Shown here piece after piece: positions 8,056 through 19,686 of a DNA stretch of 29,410 bases; position 1 is the first letter of the stretch, and the number at the start of each line of letters is the position of its first letter. The notes under the pieces are model-generated. The model did no database searches. It was not told the origin of the DNA and worked only from the letters and a program-made list of their open reading frames with translations. The DNA is from a virus. A program made the translations under genes and the position numbers. The DNA lies in IMG/VR virus record IMGVR_UViG_3300045988_055400, positions 1 to 29,410 of that record. One strand, written 5' to 3'.

Positions 8056-8793
8056 TTAGAACCAGCCGTTTTCGCGGGTGCATTCAGGTAGATGGCCGTC
8101 GGCATCCTGTGCGAGGGGTGTGGCGTTGGTGTTGGGTCGAATGGTCGTTCGGGCGTTGAGGTAGCCCTCGAATTTGTTACCGAAGAGGGTTTCCGGTCGG
8201 AGGAATTTTACCATTTCCGGGTTGTTGAGCCATTCTGCGCATTTCTTGTCGATGACCAGCTTCATATCGTCGACGGTAAAGCCTTCCTTGAGGCGGGTTT
8301 TGACTAGTTTGCGAGTGTTTACGGTGGTGGGCTTGTATTTGGTGCCGGCACGGCGGTTTAGGTGGTTTACGACCTCTTCGGTGGGGTCTGGATCCTTTGG
8401 CCGTGCGGGGGCTTGCGGCTCGTCGATGAGCGGTTGTGGTTCGATGGTGTCGTGTTCCGTCGTGGTGTCGGGCGGGGCTTGCACGTCGTTCTGTCGTGCG
8501 GCGATTTCCGGTGGGACGGCCGTGTAGTCGCACATGCGGATTCCGTTCACGTATTTTTCATGCTTGACGATGAGCTTGTCGGTGAGCAGTGACGCGAGGG
8601 TGTTGTCGACGGTCCGCATGGAGCATCCACACCATTCCGCGATGTATCGTCTGGTGCCGGAGAATTTGGAGTTTTCGTCTTGCGAGAAGCCGTAGATGAG
8701 GGCGTAGACGATGAGTTCGTAGCCTTTGAGGTTGAGTTTGGTGCGCATCCATCCTTGGATTGCGATGAAGTTGTTGTCTTTTACTGCTGACAT
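8056..8793 (-). CDS. Replication organiser: N-terminal wHTH plus C-terminal conserved phage domain (Phg_2220_C-like)
   Basis: N-terminal LKGYELIVYALIYGFSQDE...RYIAEWCGCSMRTVDNTLASL. C-terminal VVNHLNRRAGTKYKPTT...LVIDKKCAEWLNNPEMVKFLRPETLFGNKFEGY. RBS GAAGGAAA before ATG 8793. Confidence 0.75.
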   Translation of the reverse strand: MSAVKDNNFIAIQGWMRTKLNLKGYELIVYALIYGFSQDENSKFSGTRRYIAEWCGCSMRTVDNTLASLLTDKLIVKHEKYVNGIRMCDYTAVPPEIAARQNDVQAPPDTTTEHDTIEPQPLIDEPQAPARPKDPDPTEEVVNHLNRRAGTKYKPTTVNTRKLVKTRLKEGFTVDDMKLVIDKKCAEWLNNPEMVKFLRPETLFGNKFEGYLNARTTIRPNTNATPLAQDADGHLPECTRENGWF

Positions 8794-8927
8794 GATATTT
8801 CCTTCTGGGTAAAGTAAATCCCACTGACTGCTACCGTCTCCACCCGGTGGCAATCAATGGGATTCGTACCATTCCAAGTTATTTGCTCCATCCAAGCGGT
8901 GGAGCACTCGGAATGGCGTATGCCTCT

Positions 8928-8956
8928 AGCATACCACGTTTTCTAGACGACACGCC
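8928..8956 (-). promoter_or_regulatory. Promoter-like cassette for rep (GGCGTGTCGTCTAGAAAACGTGGTATGCT)
   Basis: Family motif plus a TGgTATGCT extended -10-like box. Confidence 0.5.
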
Positions 8957-8957
8957 G

Positions 8958-9248
8958 CTATATTCGGGTTATCGCATACCAGCTGAGGCAGCCGTAATGA
9001 ACCATGCTGAACAGTCCCTCATCCTCAAGCTTTCCGAGGGCCTTGGAAACGATGACTGCGGGCAGGTCCGGGAACATCCGGGGAAAATCCTTATAGGGCA
9101 TCCGAACCTAATAACGGCCGACATGATAGTGGCGCTGCCGCCTCCTCTGTTTCCGGTAGTAGTCGTAGAGCGGAGCATAGACGGTCGCCGCGGAAAAACC
9201 CAGTCTCTCGACCGGTTCAGGCATGGACGGAAGATTCTTCAAAGTCAA
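8958..9248 (-). pseudogene. Winged-helix-like ORF interrupted by one in-frame TAG (9108-9110): pseudogene or amber read-through gene
   Basis: Hand translation: (L)TLKNLPSMPEPVERLGFSAATVYAPLYDYYRKQRRRQRHYHVGRY-TAG-VRMPYKDFPRMFPDLPAVIVSKALGKLEDEGLFSMVHYGCLSWYAITRI. GAGGAGGA lies ahead of the TTG/ATG starts. Confidence 0.5.
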
Positions 9249-9490
9249 TCCTCCTCGATGAAAGAGCAGAAGAGACTCCGATTGTAGAGAATGCCTCCAA
9301 GCTTCGAAAGTGCGGTCACCGGATTATCCTATTTCCTGCATGCGATATCCCAAGCCTTAAGGACTTCATCGTTACCGAACTTCGAGCACAGGCCCGAGAA
9401 GAACTTCCGTGCCTTCTGCTCGCCTTCTCCACTGAAGTGGACGCCATACCGTTCAACGAGAGTATTTCCGATGGTGTCATAAACGCTCAT
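9245..9490 (-). pseudogene. DnaD-C-terminal-like ORF interrupted by one in-frame TAG (9329-9331): pseudogene or amber read-through gene
   Basis: MSVYDTIGNTLVERYGVHFSGEGEQKARKFFSGLCSKFGNDEVLKAWDIACRK-TAG-DNPVTALSKLGGILYNRSLFCSFIEED. The TGA stop overlaps the next ORF start as TTGA. Confidence 0.5.
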
Positions 9491-9526
9491 TATGTGATCT
9501 TTTTCTTGCCGTTGGCGTTTACCTCA

Positions 9527-9556
9527 AGCATACCACAAAGCATCGAAAAGCATCAA
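9527..9556 (-). promoter_or_regulatory. Sigma70-like promoter for the amber-containing ORFs (TTGATG-18-TATGCT)
   Basis: Minus strand reads TTGATGcttttcgatgctttgtggTATGCT. The GTGGTATGCT is shared with the rep promoter at 8928-8937. Confidence 0.45.
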
Positions 9557-9572
9557 AAGGCAAGGTATAGAT

Positions 9573-9628
9573 ACTTACTGCACATTCGCATCATCACCTC
9601 ACTTACTGCACATTCGCATCCTCACCTC
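9573..9628. repeat. 28-bp tandem direct repeat x2 (ACTTACTGCACATTCGCATC[A/C]TCACCTC), with a partial third unit
   Basis: Units at 9573-9600 and 9601-9628 differ at one base. Each carries CTGCAcattcGCA, which resembles the 10614-10696 sites. Confidence 0.9.
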
Positions 9629-9698
9629 ACTCACGTTCAACCCGGTCACCGCCATGCCCTGTTTCTTGATAGAGGGAGCGAGCTCCGGTAGAGAGAGT

Positions 9699-9744
9699 AA
9701 GCCTTAAGGGCTAAAGCGTTTTTTAGTGCTTTAGGTTAAGGCTT
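9699..9744 (+). promoter_or_regulatory. Bulged 16-bp hairpin followed by a T-rich tail
   Basis: AAGCCTTAA-GGG-CTAAAGC, loop GTTTTTTAGT, then GCTTTAG-G-TTAAGGCTT, followed by GTTGATTGTTT. Confidence 0.5.
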
Positions 9745-10013
9745 GTTGATTGTTTCCGTCAGTCGGTCGTCCGTACGGCGTCGGTCATAAGAGTGATGTA
9801 TTACTATCACTGATGCGGCATGCCCCAGCAGGTCGCGCTACATCTTTGATGTGATGGTGTCGGCATCCCGGTTGTTCCACCATCGCCTGTTGGGTCGGTT
9901 GAACTTCGCACCTCTAACGTGAGTATCAACCAACTATTAGTGGTTGTTCCCTTTACCTAAAGCAAGGACTGTAGCCGGGGAGTTTTTTCATGCCTCCGCA
10001 CCTGAGAGGCTTA

Positions 10014-10084
10014 TGCTATACTCGGATTTTACGGTTATTTTCAACCCCTATTATAGCGCATCGCTGTAGTGGGGGTTTCTTTTA
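10014..10084 (+). ncRNA. Candidate ~55-nt transcript: extended -10 promoter plus intrinsic terminator
   Basis: TGcTATACT at 10014-10022. A 14-bp stem (10043-10056 with 10064-10077) has three G-U pairs valid only for plus-sense RNA. The loop is CGCATCG and TCTTTT follows. Confidence 0.45.
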
Positions 10085-10150
10085 TGTCATCCACGCATTC
10101 GCATGGCATTCCTCTCTCACGCTTTCCACCGCACATGCCTCCAGAACGCA

Positions 10151-10237
10151 CGTAAAGGCCCCTCAAACCGATTTTCCCGTCAAACCCGATAACTCGTTAG
10201 GACTCGCTCACGACAGCCCATCAGAAAGGCCTTTACG
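10151..10237 (+). other. Long-range perfect 10-bp helix (CGTAAAGGCC / GGCCTTTACG) enclosing 67 nt
   Basis: Read directly. The strand is assigned only by context. Confidence 0.35.
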
Positions 10238-10417
10238 CAAGAAAGTGACGCTCCAGCATCAAAAAGTACCGAAAAGCATCGAAAGCGCCAAGCCATGAGA
10301 GAACCACCCAAGCCAAGTAAGGACCAACTCTCCTCTCTGCCTTCTCTCGGATCGAGTATCGGAGCCAAGGCCCGAAGGGCAGCATCGAAACCAAGCCTGT
10401 ACCCTCCTCGGTACTCA

Positions 10418-10463
10418 GAGCCATGGAAGAAGTTCCGAGACATCAGGTCAGACACCATGGCTC
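10418..10463 (+). other. Perfect 9-bp inverted repeat (GAGCCATGG / CCATGGCTC) enclosing 28 nt
   Basis: Read directly. Confidence 0.35.
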
Positions 10464-10527
10464 CACTCCGTAGTCACCGAAGCCATCAAGGCTTGTTCTT
10501 GGAGACTGGTTTCGTTTCTCTCTCTCT

Positions 10528-10554
10528 GGAAAGAAAGATTTTATCTTTCTTTCT
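10528..10554. other. A/T-rich purine-pyrimidine hairpin (GAAAGAAAGAT-TTT-ATCTTTCTTTC) flanked by CT repeats
   Basis: Read directly. An 11-bp stem. Confidence 0.5.
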
Positions 10555-10613
10555 CTCTCTTTAGAGTATTTACTAGAATATCCCTATATCTTATAGAGAT
10601 CTATATTATAGAG

Positions 10614-10696
10614 TTGCAAATTTTGCAGCTTCCTTGCTGTAAATTCTGCAGTACCCCCACTGCATATTTTGCGGTACAGTGCTGCAATGATTGCAG
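10614..10696. repeat. Four phased 15-bp palindromic sites (consensus CTGCA-N5-TGCAG): iteron/operator array
   Basis: Sites are TTGCAAATTTTGCAG (10614), CTGTAAATTCTGCAG (10637), CTGCATATTTTGCGG (10660) and CTGCAATGATTGCAG (10682). Spacing is 23, 23 and 22 bp. An AT-rich tract at 10561-10613 precedes them. Confidence 0.8.
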
Positions 10697-10779
10697 TGGG
10701 TGCGCAATCGTACGGGGAACTGTCTGAGGGTTCACACGTGGCACGCACCCTTGGTTGAACACGAACCATCGGCAATGAC

Positions 10780-10829
10780 AAAAAAGCCCCAGCCAGTCCG
10801 GGATTCTCTTCCCAAGACCAACCGGGGCC
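10780..10829 (-). terminator. Intrinsic terminator after the dut-DUF1064 operon
   Basis: Minus-sense stem CCCCGGUUGGUCU / GGACUGGCUGGGG with several G-U pairs, followed by CUUUUUUG (plus-strand A-run at 10780-10785). Confidence 0.6.
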
Positions 10830-10847
10830 ATGACCATTCCTACGCCG

Positions 10848-11183
10848 TCACGTCTCCTTGATGCTCATGCCGTACCGTCGTGCGAAGAGCTTGCGCTTAA
10901 GCCTATATATGTCGGTTCTCATGCCCTTGACGTCCTCGACGACCGTCTTGCCGTCCTCCACGTAAACGAAGTCCGCCACGTAGGAAACAGGCCGGTAATG
11001 ACTGCCGTCCACATCAAAGGCCGGCACGAGCTCATAACGCACCTGACGGCGCAGATCCTCGATGCTTCCGTCCTCCTCCATGCCTTTTAGGACGAGATAC
11101 CTGTCAGCCTCCCTCTTCGAGTCAAAAGTGACGCCGTCGACGCATGTTTTCTTTGCGTGGTATTTGCTTCGTCCGCTCCACAT
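10848..11183 (-). CDS. DUF1064-family protein (RecU/PD-(D/E)xK-like, putative junction resolvase)
   Basis: KYHAKKTCVDGVTFDSKREADRY, YVADFVY and VVEDVKG fit the DUF1064 pattern. RBS GGGAGG. Confidence 0.75.
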   Translation of the reverse strand: MWSGRSKYHAKKTCVDGVTFDSKREADRYLVLKGMEEDGSIEDLRRQVRYELVPAFDVDGSHYRPVSYVADFVYVEDGKTVVEDVKGMRTDIYRLKRKLFARRYGMSIKET

Positions 11184-12029: not shown

Positions 12030-12059
12030 GAACAGTCGATGGTCTACCGCACACGTCGG

Positions 12060-12088
12060 TTGCAATCCGATAAAAACGACGCTATATT
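12060..12088 (+). promoter_or_regulatory. Strong sigma70-like rightward promoter (TTGCAA-17-TATATT)
   Basis: Read directly. The spacer was counted as 17 nt. Confidence 0.65.
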
Positions 12089-12130
12089 GGTACTCGTCCC
12101 TCATTATGTACTGACCTACCTCAGACAAAT

Positions 12131-12173
12131 GCTCAACCGGCTTCCACGCATACCACCGGTTGAGCACTTTTTT
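12131..12173 (+). terminator. Intrinsic terminator ~40 nt downstream of the rightward promoter
   Basis: GCTCAACCGG / CCGGTTGAGC form a 10-bp perfect stem, followed by ACTTTTTT. Confidence 0.75.
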
Positions 12174-12232
12174 ATATCCAAAACCCTACAATCCTCTCCA
12201 CACATGCCTGTGACACACCAATACGAAATAAG

Positions 12233-12262
12233 TTGTAGGAAACACTCAAACCGTTATATAAT
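12233..12262 (+). promoter_or_regulatory. Promoter TTGTAG-18-TATAAT, 7 nt before ATG 12270 (leaderless arrangement)
   Basis: Read directly. Confidence 0.55.
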
Positions 12263-12269
12263 AAGACCT

Positions 12270-12449
12270 ATGAACGCTAAAGATTACACAGCAACAGTCC
12301 CCGAATACGCCAAGCGCTGGAAGCTCAACATTCAGACCGTCCGCCGCTTCATCCGCGAAGGACGACTCCACGCAGTCAAGGTCGGCCGATGCTACTTCCT
12401 CGACCCGGACGTCATTCCCGACAAGGACAGACGCTCGGCCAACGAGTAG
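12270..12449 (+). CDS. Excisionase/MerR-type HTH (HTH_17-like) DNA-binding protein, 59 aa
   Basis: YAKRWKLNIQTVRRFIREGRLHAVKVGRCYFLDPD. There is no RBS, and TATAAT lies 7 nt upstream. Confidence 0.7.
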   Translation: MNAKDYTATVPEYAKRWKLNIQTVRRFIREGRLHAVKVGRCYFLDPDVIPDKDRRSANE

Positions 12450-12528: not shown

Positions 12529-12912
12529 ATAAACACCGAAATCCAACCATTCGAATTCGAAAACAATCAGGTCAGAGCATTCACCGACGGCGACGAAGTA
12601 ATGTTCGTCGCAACCGACATCGCGAAGATCCCCTCGAACGCCGGCATGCCAATCGGAGAAAAGGAACTACGCGAATGGCTTAAACAACACGATTGGATAT
12701 CCCGACACGCCGGAACATGGAGTGCGGCTTCGGAACGGGTGAAAACCGGACGCTTGGCCATGGTGGAGTCAAGATCACACGGACGACATAAGGACGGCAG
12801 CACCTTCGCGTTCGCCCCGACTGTCAAAATCACCTGCAGAGGCCTGGCACTACTTCACACGCGACTCAGCGAAACCCGCATGAACGAAAATCTCGAAACA
12901 ACCACTCACTGA
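12529..12912 (+). CDS. Antirepressor-like protein (Bro-N plus KilA-C-like); 5' boundary unresolved, canonical ATG only at 12601
   Basis: The in-frame sequence upstream of ATG 12601 reads NTEIQPFEFENNQVRAFTDGDEV-MFVATDIAKI, which is a Bro-N core. The frame is open from 12481 with no ATG/GTG/TTG. RBS AAGGAAAGG at 12513-12521 is 7 nt before ATA 12529. The C-terminal ERVKTGRLAMVE...VKITCRGLALL is KilA-C-like. Confidence 0.6.
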   Translation: MNTEIQPFEFENNQVRAFTDGDEVMFVATDIAKIPSNAGMPIGEKELREWLKQHDWISRHAGTWSAASERVKTGRLAMVESRSHGRHKDGSTFAFAPTVKITCRGLALLHTRLSETRMNENLETTTH

Positions 12913-13999: not shown

Positions 14000-15259
14000 A
14001 TGCAGATAGCAAAACCTTACCGAGACCTATGGTGGTGGCTCCACACGGAGACACCACCATATCGTTATTACTGTTATTCCGGCGGCAGGGCCTCAGGTAA
14101 GAGCACCGCCGTCGCTCAAAGCCTCATTCTCCGCGCCTCCGTACAGCCAATCACCGTCCTCTGCGCACGCGAATTCCAGAATTCCATCACCGACTCCGTA
14201 TACAAGCTCCTCACCGGCACCATCGAAAAATTCGGCCTGCAAGGCTTCGAAATCCGACGCGACGGCATCGGCCACGTCAACGGCAGCAGCTTCATCTTTC
14301 GCGGCCTGCACGACAATATTCAATCCATAAAAAGCATCGAAGGCATCGACGTCTGCTGGATAGAGGAAGCCCAAACCATCAGCCAGGCAAGCCTGACGAC
14401 GCTTATTCCGACCATCCGCAAGACCAACTCGACACTGATATTCACTTGGAATCCGCTTACCAGCCACGACCCGGTCTGGACATACTTCATCACCACAGAC
14501 TCCAAAGAACGCCTGCGCCAGACATGCCACTGGCACACTACATACGAGGATGTACGCCGCCTCATCAGCCAAGACGTCCTCGATATGATCGAAGCCGACA
14601 AACAAACAGCCGACTACGGACACGTCTGGCTTGGCCTGCCATACGCGGACACCGACAACCAGCTCATCAGCGACGCCATGCTCAACGAAGCCCTCCACCG
14701 TACACCATCGGACGGCCCCGTCACCTTCGGAGTCGACGTCGCACGATATGGCAACGACCGCACAGCCCTCACCATCAAACAAGGCAATCGGATCGAAACC
14801 CTCGAATCATGGACCCACACAAGCATCGTCGAAACCGCCGAAAGGATCAAACTCCACGCTTCACGACACCAGCCGATCGACATTCGAATCGACGACACCG
14901 GCGTAGGTGGAGGGCTTACCGACTTGCTCAAATCATGGGGACTGCCAGCCACCGGCATCAACTACGCCGGCAAACCAAAGGATCCGCAATACCCCAACAT
15001 CGCATCCGAACTCTGGTTTGACTTCGCAAACATGCTCCCCCAGCTCGGCATCAACCCGCGAATCCCCGATCTAGCCAAGCTCACCACCGAACTGATCACA
15101 CGCAAATGGCACATAAACAGCCGCAACCAACGCCAAATCGAAAGCAAACAAGACTACAAAGACGCTATGAACCTTGGAAGCCCGGATTTGGCCGACAGCC
15201 TACTCCTTGCATGCTACGAGCCACCGAAACTCCCCTCATGGGACGTCATAGTCTGCTGA
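14000..15259 (+). CDS. terL: Terminase large subunit
   Basis: Walker A YSGGRASGKS, Walker B-like DVCWIEEA and a C-terminal nuclease region (FGVDVARYGNDRTAL). RBS GGGAG. Confidence 0.9.
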   Translation: MQIAKPYRDLWWWLHTETPPYRYYCYSGGRASGKSTAVAQSLILRASVQPITVLCAREFQNSITDSVYKLLTGTIEKFGLQGFEIRRDGIGHVNGSSFIFRGLHDNIQSIKSIEGIDVCWIEEAQTISQASLTTLIPTIRKTNSTLIFTWNPLTSHDPVWTYFITTDSKERLRQTCHWHTTYEDVRRLISQDVLDMIEADKQTADYGHVWLGLPYADTDNQLISDAMLNEALHRTPSDGPVTFGVDVARYGNDRTALTIKQGNRIETLESWTHTSIVETAERIKLHASRHQPIDIRIDDTGVGGGLTDLLKSWGLPATGINYAGKPKDPQYPNIASELWFDFANMLPQLGINPRIPDLAKLTTELITRKWHINSRNQRQIESKQDYKDAMNLGSPDLADSLLLACYEPPKLPSWDVIVC

Positions 15260-19314: not shown

Positions 19315-19686
19315 ATGATCGATGAAATGTACTCACGACTCGGCAATAAAGCATTGCCTGAAGACAGTCTGAACACGGTTAAGGTCATCAACTTTGTGGA
19401 CGAAGAAGGTCAGCCAGTGGCCTTCGGCCAGGGTCCGGCAGGTCCGGCTGGTCCTGTTGGCCCGGCAGGTCCGGCTGGTCCTGTTGGCCCGGCAGGTCCG
19501 GCTGGCCAAGTCGGTCCCGAAGGCCTCGCAGGCCCCGCAGGCCCCGCAGGCCCCGAAGGCCCCGCAGGCCCCGCAGGCCCCGCAGGCCCCGCAGGCCAGA
19601 TCACCAAGGCCTCCCACGTTGACCCGGACACCGGCTCGGTCGCAGACGTGGTGAACGCTCTGGTTAACGCTGGACTCATGGAATGA
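19315..19686 (+). CDS. Collagen-like (Gly-X-Y) repeat protein, 123 aa; head decoration/fibre candidate
   Basis: 19 uninterrupted G-X-Y triplets (GPAGPAGPV...). The start overlaps the capsid stop region. Confidence 0.8.
19432..19602 (+). repeat. Nucleotide-level tandem repeats encoding the Gly-X-Y tract (27-bp units, then 9-bp GCAGGCCCC units)
   Basis: Read directly. Confidence 0.85.

Follow-up and report, generated by a model that had tools for sequence, protein, structure and literature searches.

What does a small phage genome do with two kilobases of its replication module in which no intact gene can be found? The question is posed by positions 8794-10847 of the IMG/VR virus record IMGVR_UViG_3300045988_055400, a stretch of 29,410 nucleotides (nt; positions 1 to 29,410 of that record) that was analyzed at its full length and is referred to here as the window. 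This island lies between a DUF1064 gene and rep, the gene for a replication initiator (Rep). Having compared it with the corresponding interval of related phages, we favor on balance the view that the island is a lambda-type replication-origin and control region of a human-gut phage, mosaic in its make-up and carrying a mobile, novel structured RNA gene.

Results

Conservation without codons between DUF1064 and geneX

A sequence-only reading of the window had described about 2.05 kb without a convincing protein open reading frame (ORF). This description holds in that no intact, protein-supported ORF lies between the rep start (8793) and the DUF1064 stop (10848), but it goes too far in denying the interval anything of protein character: two minus-strand ORFs interrupted by amber codons, here termed geneX (9245-9490) and geneY (8943-9248), are bona fide genes with intact counterparts in relatives. 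The truly non-coding part spans about 1.36 kb (9495-10847), not 2.05 kb. Gene callers applied to independent assemblies place no call in the gap between DUF1064 and geneX, and the ORFs listed for the window at 8847-9287, 9990-10298 and 10295-10564 (plus strand) and at 10180-10458 (minus strand) show no ORF conservation, their frames varying among relatives.

Relatives were gathered by scanning IMG/VR with Rep and with DUF1064; two scans for DNA patterns and one metagenome scan were added. Together these yielded about 30 distinct related contigs of about 30 kb, mostly from human gut (numbered with an L where they need to be told apart). The gap between DUF1064 and the next gene measures 0.5-1.7 kb in all of them. 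The island aligns to about 30 relatives at 75-83% nucleotide identity (blastn, nhmmer), about the same as the flanking genes, and the pattern of alignment is modular. Two of its blocks are central to the argument:

10095-10505, minus strand: block B, conserved non-coding sequence present in nearly all family members; G/U-rich on this strand (G>C)
9647-10092, plus strand: block C, a putative structured RNA element of about 440 nt with its own terminator (hairpin 10043-10077, U-run to about 10087); optional and mobile

The flip in strand composition near position 10000 is real (AT skew is -0.20 before and +0.11 after it, GC skew -0.015 before and -0.20 after) and coincides with the junction of the two blocks.

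Sorted by codon phase, nucleotide diversity is flat in block B (0.178/0.183/0.183) and in block C (0.171/0.162/0.162), as against 0.115/0.096/0.305 in DUF1064 and 0.137/0.067/0.324 in geneX. Given this flat variation, and frames that are broken by indels between relatives, we rejected blocks B and C as protein-coding genes; indeed, 9495-10847 is non-coding in every relative and displays no codon periodicity. Per-site diversity in the two blocks (0.16-0.18) amounts to about 55-60% of that at third codon positions of the flanking genes (0.30-0.32). The degree of identity, the low diversity and the lack of a three-base periodicity together argue against a decayed divergent gene pair in 9495-10847, one of the two explanations that the sequence-only reading had offered, and instead bear the signature of non-coding sequence under constraint. 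Genuine decay is limited to the two small genes on the minus strand (8943-9490), and these are arranged in tandem, not divergently.

Iterons that co-vary with the Rep initiator

Next to block B stand three features that together resemble a replication origin:

10614-10628, 10637-10651, 10660-10674 and 10682-10696: four 15-bp dyad-symmetric iterons, consensus CTGCAAAATTTGCAG on the minus strand; proposed Rep-binding sites
10563-10613: AT-rich tract of (T/G)ATACTCTAG-type short repeats, with conserved TAGATACTCTAG repeats in the alignment; candidate DNA-unwinding element
10515-10562: purine/pyrimidine palindrome with its stem at 10528-10554; relatives with the other origin cassette have two G+C-rich hairpins in its place

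The iterons, first noted as four phased palindromes, are spaced by 23, 23 and 22 bp and constitute the only matches in the window, where 0.69 would be expected by chance; an A/T hairpin noted alongside them corresponds to the stem of the palindrome, which is A/T-rich. No DnaA boxes were found in the island. Relatives share this architecture while using other repeat sequences, with 3-5 repeats at a period of about 22 bp. Inspection of these sequences revealed that five iteron types pair with five alleles of the N-terminal helix-turn-helix (HTH) of Rep:

CTGCAAAATTTGCAG, with Rep motif …SMRTVDNT…: the window (WIN), L086, L089, L097
GCCGCAAAATCAG, with Rep motif …SLDTVDR…: L082, L085, L091, L094, L095, L098
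CCTCAAAATGAGG, with Rep motif …S(M/I)AT(I/V)DRT…: L087, L099, L100, L101, L102, L103, L007
CAATACCTAGGTATCGA, with an unrelated Rep starting MKYT(I/L)EGFSQE: L080, L081, L096
TTAAAATGAATTTGGG, with a Rep starting MKKHILDIGVAQL: L088

Typing by fixed patterns succeeded for both partners in 22 of 25 genomes, and none of these is discordant; the other three are accounted for by one Rep that the pattern missed (in L090, which has CTGCAAAATTTGCAG-type iterons) and by two variant iterons. In L004 and L006 a K variant of the SMRTVDNT motif accompanies an CTGTAAAATTTACAG-type iteron, and in L104, a member of the unrelated-Rep class, the repeats have diverged. Block C, which stands between the repeats and rep, is present in some genomes and absent from others within four of the five classes (the fifth consists of one genome), so recombination appears to have shuffled the interval without ever separating a Rep allele from its repeats. 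This persistent linkage is what initiator-iteron specificity predicts.

Taken with the clustering of iterons, AT-rich tract and palindrome, the co-variation with the Rep allele makes a replication origin the best-supported function for 10515-10696. Phased repeats and an AT-rich region, as known from iteron origins, are present directly in the sequence, while initiator-specific repeats are evident indirectly, through allele co-variation; it is on this co-variation that the predicted binding of the Rep HTH to the iterons, and initiation there, would rest.

Tandem double origin cassettes occur in L100 (6430-6800), L099, L102, L007 and L088, each cassette being followed by the first ~110 nt of block B. 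The upstream cassette of L100 has degenerate iterons, followed by a weak terminator-like hairpin. The island is a hot spot for cassette exchange.

Block C, a mobile unit with compensatory base changes

Full-length homologues of blocks B and C were searched by nhmmer. About half of the family has block C, and with it comes a variable repeat tract, which differs in sequence among genomes and is absent from those without block C. A tandem repeat already detected by the sequence-only reading belongs to this tract:

9573-9631: 28-bp tandem repeat, 2.1 copies; part of the variable tract, G/T-rich on the minus strand, travelling with block C

A consensus fold computed with RNAalifold from 23 distinct block C sequences contains 98 pairs, 27 of which show compensatory (double) changes. 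Cells in which both sides of a pair have changed number 113, compared with 36.6 +/- 4.5 in shuffled alignments, and the covariation score is 0.187, compared with 0.105; none of 500 shuffles reaches either value, and controls in which pairing partners were slid score 0.04-0.06. Block C thereby shows the generic hallmark of a structured RNA, compensatory pairs in excess of controls.

Several measures bear on the strand. The consensus energy is -111.7 on the plus strand versus -86.6 on the minus strand, the column-shuffle z is -10.2 versus -6.9, and the single-sequence z is -3.6 (0 of 100 shuffles as stable) versus -1.7. The plus-strand terminator that the sequence-only reading had placed in the island is there as well, a hairpin (10043-10077) with a U-run, and C-G/U-G and U-A/U-G alternations among relatives are legal in this hairpin only on the plus strand. 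The plus strand is accordingly a well supported, if not absolute, assignment for block C, and transcription in this direction is likely.

Block C also occurs in four contigs of a second phage group with genomes of about 35 kb, where it is kept at about 70% identity, is unaccompanied by block B, and occupies another locus, upstream of the terminase genes and antisense to its neighbors, a small membrane-protein gene on one side and an HNH-endonuclease gene on the other. In L195 some 8 kb separate it from DUF1064-geneX-geneY, and these three genes adjoin in that contig without a large gap. Homology between the two groups extends from about CAC…CAT(G/A)GTGTGTTTCTTGAGGGAG to the terminator U-run, a span that delimits a self-contained unit; the U-run itself is conserved in both groups and marks the edge of this unit. 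Block C is oriented like a cis-antisense regulator of replication of the OOP/CopA type, but its other locus in the second group speaks against a replication-specific role in cis. Both groups in which block C was seen are human-gut phages.

A search for trans targets returned no complementarity of at least 13 nt elsewhere in the genome, only chance-level matches of 11-12 nt. Among the 4,227 families of Rfam 15 none matches the window at its gathering score, and at E <= 10 the interval 8700-10950 gives chance-level matches only (11-19 bits; ROOL, GOLLD, OLE, HEARO, group I/II introns, tmRNA, RNase P and 6S included); ARAGORN found no tRNA or tmRNA in the window. Block C, which has no match in Rfam 15, might nonetheless be listed, undescribed, in an IMG/VR catalogue (PMC10690425) that contains more than 10,000 candidate structured RNAs. 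A conserved-looking peptide within block C (…TDPTGDGGITGVPTPSHQRCSA…) was discarded, as it shows no third-position excess and is disrupted by frame-shifting indels among relatives. Candidate -10 elements for block C (TATCAT in the second group, GATACT at 9570-9575 in the window) were likewise set aside, since they are not conserved across the groups.

Could the hairpins of block C act instead as DNA, single-stranded during replication or packaging, in the manner of a primosome-assembly, single-strand initiation or packaging-related site? Each strand mirrors the helices of the other and shows wobble-type exceptions, and block C lies beside the origin here and upstream of HNH and terminase genes in the second group, all of which such a site could accommodate. 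Long-range helices and many invariant G-U pairs in a multi-helix fold of 440 nt are, however, typical of RNA; known single-strand initiation signals measure about 100 nt. The conserved U-run behind a strand-specific hairpin moreover points to transcription termination. We consider a DNA role very unlikely, and continue with block C as a putative plus-strand RNA.

Block B, a companion of the origin cassette

Two genomes are exceptions to the general presence of block B: L103/L010, which lacks it, and L101, in which a deletion runs from the middle of block B into geneX. Block C is missing from both as well, the junction in L103/L010 lying at a shared AAGCCTT. In genomes with two origin cassettes, the first ~110 nt of block B follow each of them, as described above. 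The consensus fold of block B reaches -71.8 kcal/mol with 95 pairs on the minus strand (column-shuffle z -3.9), compared with -32.1 kcal/mol and 41 pairs on the plus strand (z -2.6). Most changes are one-sided and wobble-compatible, and a short hairpin, GCCC-UUC-GGGC, shows two independent compensatory changes. Block B is a constrained, origin-linked non-coding element, for which a role as a sense-strand RNA is plausible. The sequence-only reading had alternatively proposed RNAs made from both strands of the island. This proposal is partly supported: block C folds best as a plus-strand RNA and has a plus-only terminator, and block B folds better on the minus strand, with weak covariation.

The same data can be arranged differently, with blocks B and C forming one long minus-strand (sense) RNA that starts from the origin cassette and acts as a replication primer, an R-loop former or the leader of a geneX-rep operon; the plus-strand terminator would then only insulate against antisense transcription. 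Such an RNA would suit the G/U-rich minus strand of block B, whose excess of G over C favors R-loops, the position of block B beside the iterons and the duplication of its 5' domain with each origin cassette, as well as the orientation of block C relative to flanking genes, which is the same in both phage groups, and the minus-only G-U pairs in some of its helices. It fits poorly with the greater and more unusual stability of block C on the plus strand, with a conserved unit that ends exactly at the plus-strand hairpin and U-run and includes wobble changes illegal on the minus strand, with second-group copies of block C that stand far from replication genes and without block B, and with the genomes in which blocks B and C are both missing. 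We therefore regard a single long sense RNA as unlikely, and prefer a plus-strand block C that is separate from block B.

Two small genes interrupted by amber codons

Downstream of block C lie the two interrupted genes:

9245-9490, minus strand: geneX, 81 codons, encoding a five-helix protein; in-frame TAG at 9329-9331 where relatives have Tyr54
8943-9248, minus strand: geneY, about 100 codons (93-106 amino acids, aa, in relatives), encoding a winged-helix DNA-binding domain; TAG at 9108-9110 where relatives have Trp

Homologues of geneX form 299 clusters, and 115 of the 120 listed are 81 aa long; mean identity in a 15-sequence alignment is 88%. On both contigs shown among those that carry the exact DUF1064 protein, geneX is called as 53 aa. 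Past its TAG, geneX still encodes a peptide that hardly departs from the family consensus, and the ribosome-binding site (RBS) in the window reads AAAAAGA versus AAAGGA in relatives. The protein matches no Pfam or PHROG family. Its structure model (pLDDT 94) is a five-helix bundle, and fold matches are DnaD-type domain-like, non-significant and of TM ~0.5, a weak resemblance that offers a lead, not a finding.

In geneY, which overlaps geneX by ATGA, a second TAG (8958-8960) ends the frame four codons ahead of the stop used by relatives. The protein matches the N-terminal DNA-binding part of phrog_11233, 'replication initiation protein' (E 4e-8), with weak HTH matches in Pfam and nothing meaningful among PDB sequences. 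Several relatives lack geneY, and L103 has it in frameshifted form; for geneX, a frameshift is seen in L085 and a truncation in L101. In L088 (IMGVR_UViG_3300045988_027766), a rep ORF situated some 700 nt downstream of geneX encodes a Rep whose N-terminal part is homologous to the stand-alone geneY, a relationship which suggests that geneY may be a leftover or spare initiator DNA-binding domain from a swap of the rep module.

We considered whether the phage recodes TAG, and rejected this: among the real genes of the window that were checked, only geneX and geneY carry an in-frame TAG, which replaces Tyr in one and Trp in the other, TAG ends the DnaC-like gene, and no tRNA is encoded. A related alternative is that a suppressor tRNA of the host, or recoding, lets the TAGs be read through, so that both genes still function. 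That both interruptions are TAG, that the peptide beyond the geneX TAG has hardly changed and that the same genome recurs in several human-gut assemblies would agree with read-through. The two codons, however, replace different residues, TAG serves as the normal stop of the DnaC-like gene, the geneX RBS is weakened as well, and other lineages have independently frameshifted or lost the two genes; given nonsense mutations at a Tyr and a Trp codon, moreover, both would be TAG by chance in one case out of four. Read-through is consequently a minor alternative, to which we give little credence, and geneX and geneY are best read as recently inactivated accessory genes, that is, pseudogenes.

Should decay then be extended to the whole island? 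On such an account it would be a graveyard of decayed genes and recombination scars, with function limited to promoters and a terminator. Signs of rearrangement are plentiful: geneY is missing, frameshifted or hit by an amber mutation, depending on the genome, truncated forms of geneX occur in the window, L085 and L101, the iterons of L100 are degenerate, the 5' part of block B is duplicated, and block B holds a relic resembling the geneX promoter (see below). Yet blocks B and C retain little more than half of the diversity of third codon positions and show no codon periodicity, 27 pairs of block C are kept by compensatory changes at a level that no shuffle attains, block C persists in a different phage group at another locus, and the iterons track the Rep allele. 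The graveyard account, already disfavored on these grounds, strikes us as exceedingly improbable, and constrained non-coding sequence remains our reading of 9495-10847.

Promoter-like elements and the upstream terminator

Elements that may direct transcription through and around the island are:

9527-9556, minus strand: P_X, promoter-like element for geneX-geneY(-rep), with -35 TTGATG (9556-9551), 18-nt spacer and extended -10 TGGTATGCT (9535-9527)
8794-8937, minus strand: rep promoter-like element, with GTGGTATGCT at 8928-8937, and rep leader of about 130 nt (8794-8927)
10778-10829, minus strand: intrinsic terminator of the dUTPase-DUF1064 unit, 18-bp hairpin and T-run

A promoter-like cassette had been assigned to rep from the sequence alone. 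Its decamer, GTGGTATGCT, indeed stands upstream of rep, and a second copy on the minus strand (9527-9536) precedes geneX; relatives keep the decamer as TGGTATACT or TGGTATGCT, and both copies have the form of extended -10 promoter-like elements. The rep leader is retained even in relatives with an unrelated rep gene (L080, L104), which suggests that it has a regulatory role of its own. A further motif, TCGATGCTTTTCG(A/G)TGCTT, made up of short repeats with a period of about 10 bp, occurs both at 10255-10285 within block B and at 9537-9560, in the -35 region of the geneX promoter. The copy in block B looks like a promoter relic without a -10 element, or a shared protein-binding site.

At the opposite end of the island, the minus-strand terminator predicted behind DUF1064 is confirmed by covariation: 8 of its 18 pairs carry compensatory changes across 15 relatives, and the T-run is conserved. 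Transcription from upstream would accordingly stop ahead of the island.

Genome context and relatives

In the genome of the window (about 29.4 kb), the minus strand carries the early and replication genes (11944 to 131); the late genes begin at 12039 on the plus strand. Upstream of the island lies the DUF1064 gene (10848-11183, Pfam E 1.5e-31), which shares a transcription unit with a dUTPase gene; downstream are rep (8056-8793; HTH_36 and Phg_2220_C) and then the DnaC-like loader gene. A 6,045-nt contig from human gut in ENA is 100% identical to the window, and exact matches to the DUF1064 protein occur on at least 15 contigs, so the island sequence is no assembly accident.

Against INPHARED phages, blastn with the island gave no match. 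The large terminase (TerL; 14000-15259) is 49% identical to those of the honey-bee Bifidobacterium phages BlindUri1 and BlindBasel1 and less than 35% identical to all other matches listed among 50,697 deposited phage genomes. BlindUri1 was tried as a guide to the island, being the nearest cultured phage by TerL, and proved uninformative because its layout differs. Two scans of 185,579 GTDB species genomes, with a block B 19-mer and with a geneX profile, found no prophage copy, so this phage family, abundant in the human gut, seems to be uncultured and possibly virulent. At the divergent early/late boundary, an excisionase-like HTH protein (12039-12449) and a protein with a KilAC/Ant anti-repressor domain (12601-12912) are encoded; annotation in this part covered these two genes and their neighbors. 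Collagen-like 9-bp (Gly-X-Y) tandem repeats are found at 19432-19597, inside a late ORF of the tail-fiber region.

Discussion

The observations above can be assembled into a model, in which directions follow the minus strand, the sense of the flanking genes. An intrinsic terminator, whose hairpin is upheld by covariation, would end the dUTPase-DUF1064 unit. The HTH of Rep, encoded 1.8 kb downstream, would bind the iterons, after which the DnaC-like loader would act at the AT-rich tract. Block B would most likely give rise to a minus-strand transcript, a leader or primer-like RNA close to the origin, this being the weakest step. Block C would constitute a self-contained gene, expressed from the plus strand, antisense to its neighbors and ended by its own terminator, an accessory 'RNA moron' that moves between lineages. 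Finally, one promoter would drive geneX-geneY, and rep would be driven by another copy of that extended -10 element; in the window, geneX and geneY are each cut by a single-base amber mutation, with the RBS of geneX weakened in addition.

A number of findings weigh against this model. A sigma-70 scan identified no promoter for block B or block C, and the sequence upstream of block C is not conserved between the two phage groups. The strand assignment of block C is not clean, since in a few of its helices (the hairpin at about 9927-9946; pair 230-336 of alignment A1) G-U pairing is permitted on the minus strand but not on the plus strand. In block B double changes are confined to 8 pairs, shuffled alignments reach the same covariation score, and the single-sequence fold does not stand out (z -0.85). 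If the L103/L010 and L101 contigs represent viable phages, neither block is essential, their absence there marking both as dispensable. The maximum of cumulative GC skew falls at about 8.8-9.0 kb, on the left edge of the island, and its minimum lies about half a genome away at about 24.5 kb; under the bacterial polarity rule the peak would mark a terminus, not an origin, and the signal is ambiguous. This skew switch at 9 kb is distinct from the point at 12.0 kb where gene orientation changes. The skew is opposite to that of other genes on the respective strand in DUF1064/dUTPase and in the last 5 kb of plus-strand genes.

A bolder proposal goes further than the model that we favor: block C would represent a new class of large phage RNA acting in trans, for instance on the timing of replication or lysis or as an anti-defense decoy, and block B would prime or license initiation, giving a transcript-assisted, initiator-dependent origin. 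We hold this only tentatively, as rather less probable than the origin model itself; if true, it would describe a kind of phage origin not previously reported. Independently of that proposal, very few bacterial or phage RNAs above 400 nt are both backed by covariation and without an assigned function, each such RNA has proved biologically interesting, and block C adds a testable candidate that has clear boundaries, a terminator, two genomic contexts and a presence/absence polymorphism. The pairs of Rep allele and iteron type offer a natural specificity table for a DnaD-like phage initiator, and the cassette duplications show origin swapping in abundant, uncultured human-gut phages whose nearest cultured relatives by TerL are Bifidobacterium phages. 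In annotation, the 'gap' should be labelled as an origin plus a non-coding RNA, and the two small ORF pairs as pseudogenes.

How does the island compare with known systems? ROOL and GOLLD are large 'ornate' structured RNAs of phages and prophages. Block C resembles them, and phage morons, in exceeding 400 nt, in its covariation-supported structure and in being a stand-alone, phage-carried element of patchy distribution that sits between transcription units; it differs in not adjoining tRNAs and in matching neither them nor any other Rfam family in sequence or structure, even at the permissive threshold. The antisense RNAs OOP of lambda, CopA and RNA I measure 70-110 nt. Like these, block C is a terminator-ended RNA gene just upstream of a replication operon and points against it. 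Unlike them, it is about 440 nt long with at least 15 helices, overlaps no known coding target, lacks extended complementarity elsewhere in its genome, and is located in the lysis/packaging region of the second group.

Transcript-dependent origins include ColE1 with its RNA II, the T4 R-loop origins ori(uvsY) and ori(34), and the ori transcript of lactococcal phage c2. Block B recalls these as a non-coding stretch of several hundred nucleotides with a G-rich sense strand next to an origin. It departs from them in that neither a promoter nor an RNase H-type processing site was identified for it, in that a dedicated initiator and loader are encoded, and in that block B is missing from some genomes.

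The closest parallel to the origin cassette is ori-lambda of the lambdoid phages, which comprises four O-protein-binding iterons, an AT-rich region and a palindrome and lies inside the initiator gene. In the island, likewise, dyad-symmetric repeats occur four times on the same face of the helix, with an AT-rich tract behind them and an inverted repeat beyond that, and its initiator has an N-terminal DNA-binding domain that matches the repeat type and is partnered by a helicase-loader gene. In contrast to ori-lambda, the proposed origin is intergenic, 1.8 kb upstream of rep, and is shielded from upstream transcription by a terminator; unlike lambda O, its initiator is a DnaD-like replisome organizer (HTH_36 + Phg_2220_C). 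Origin cassettes of the island type, moreover, come in two hairpin flavors and can be duplicated.

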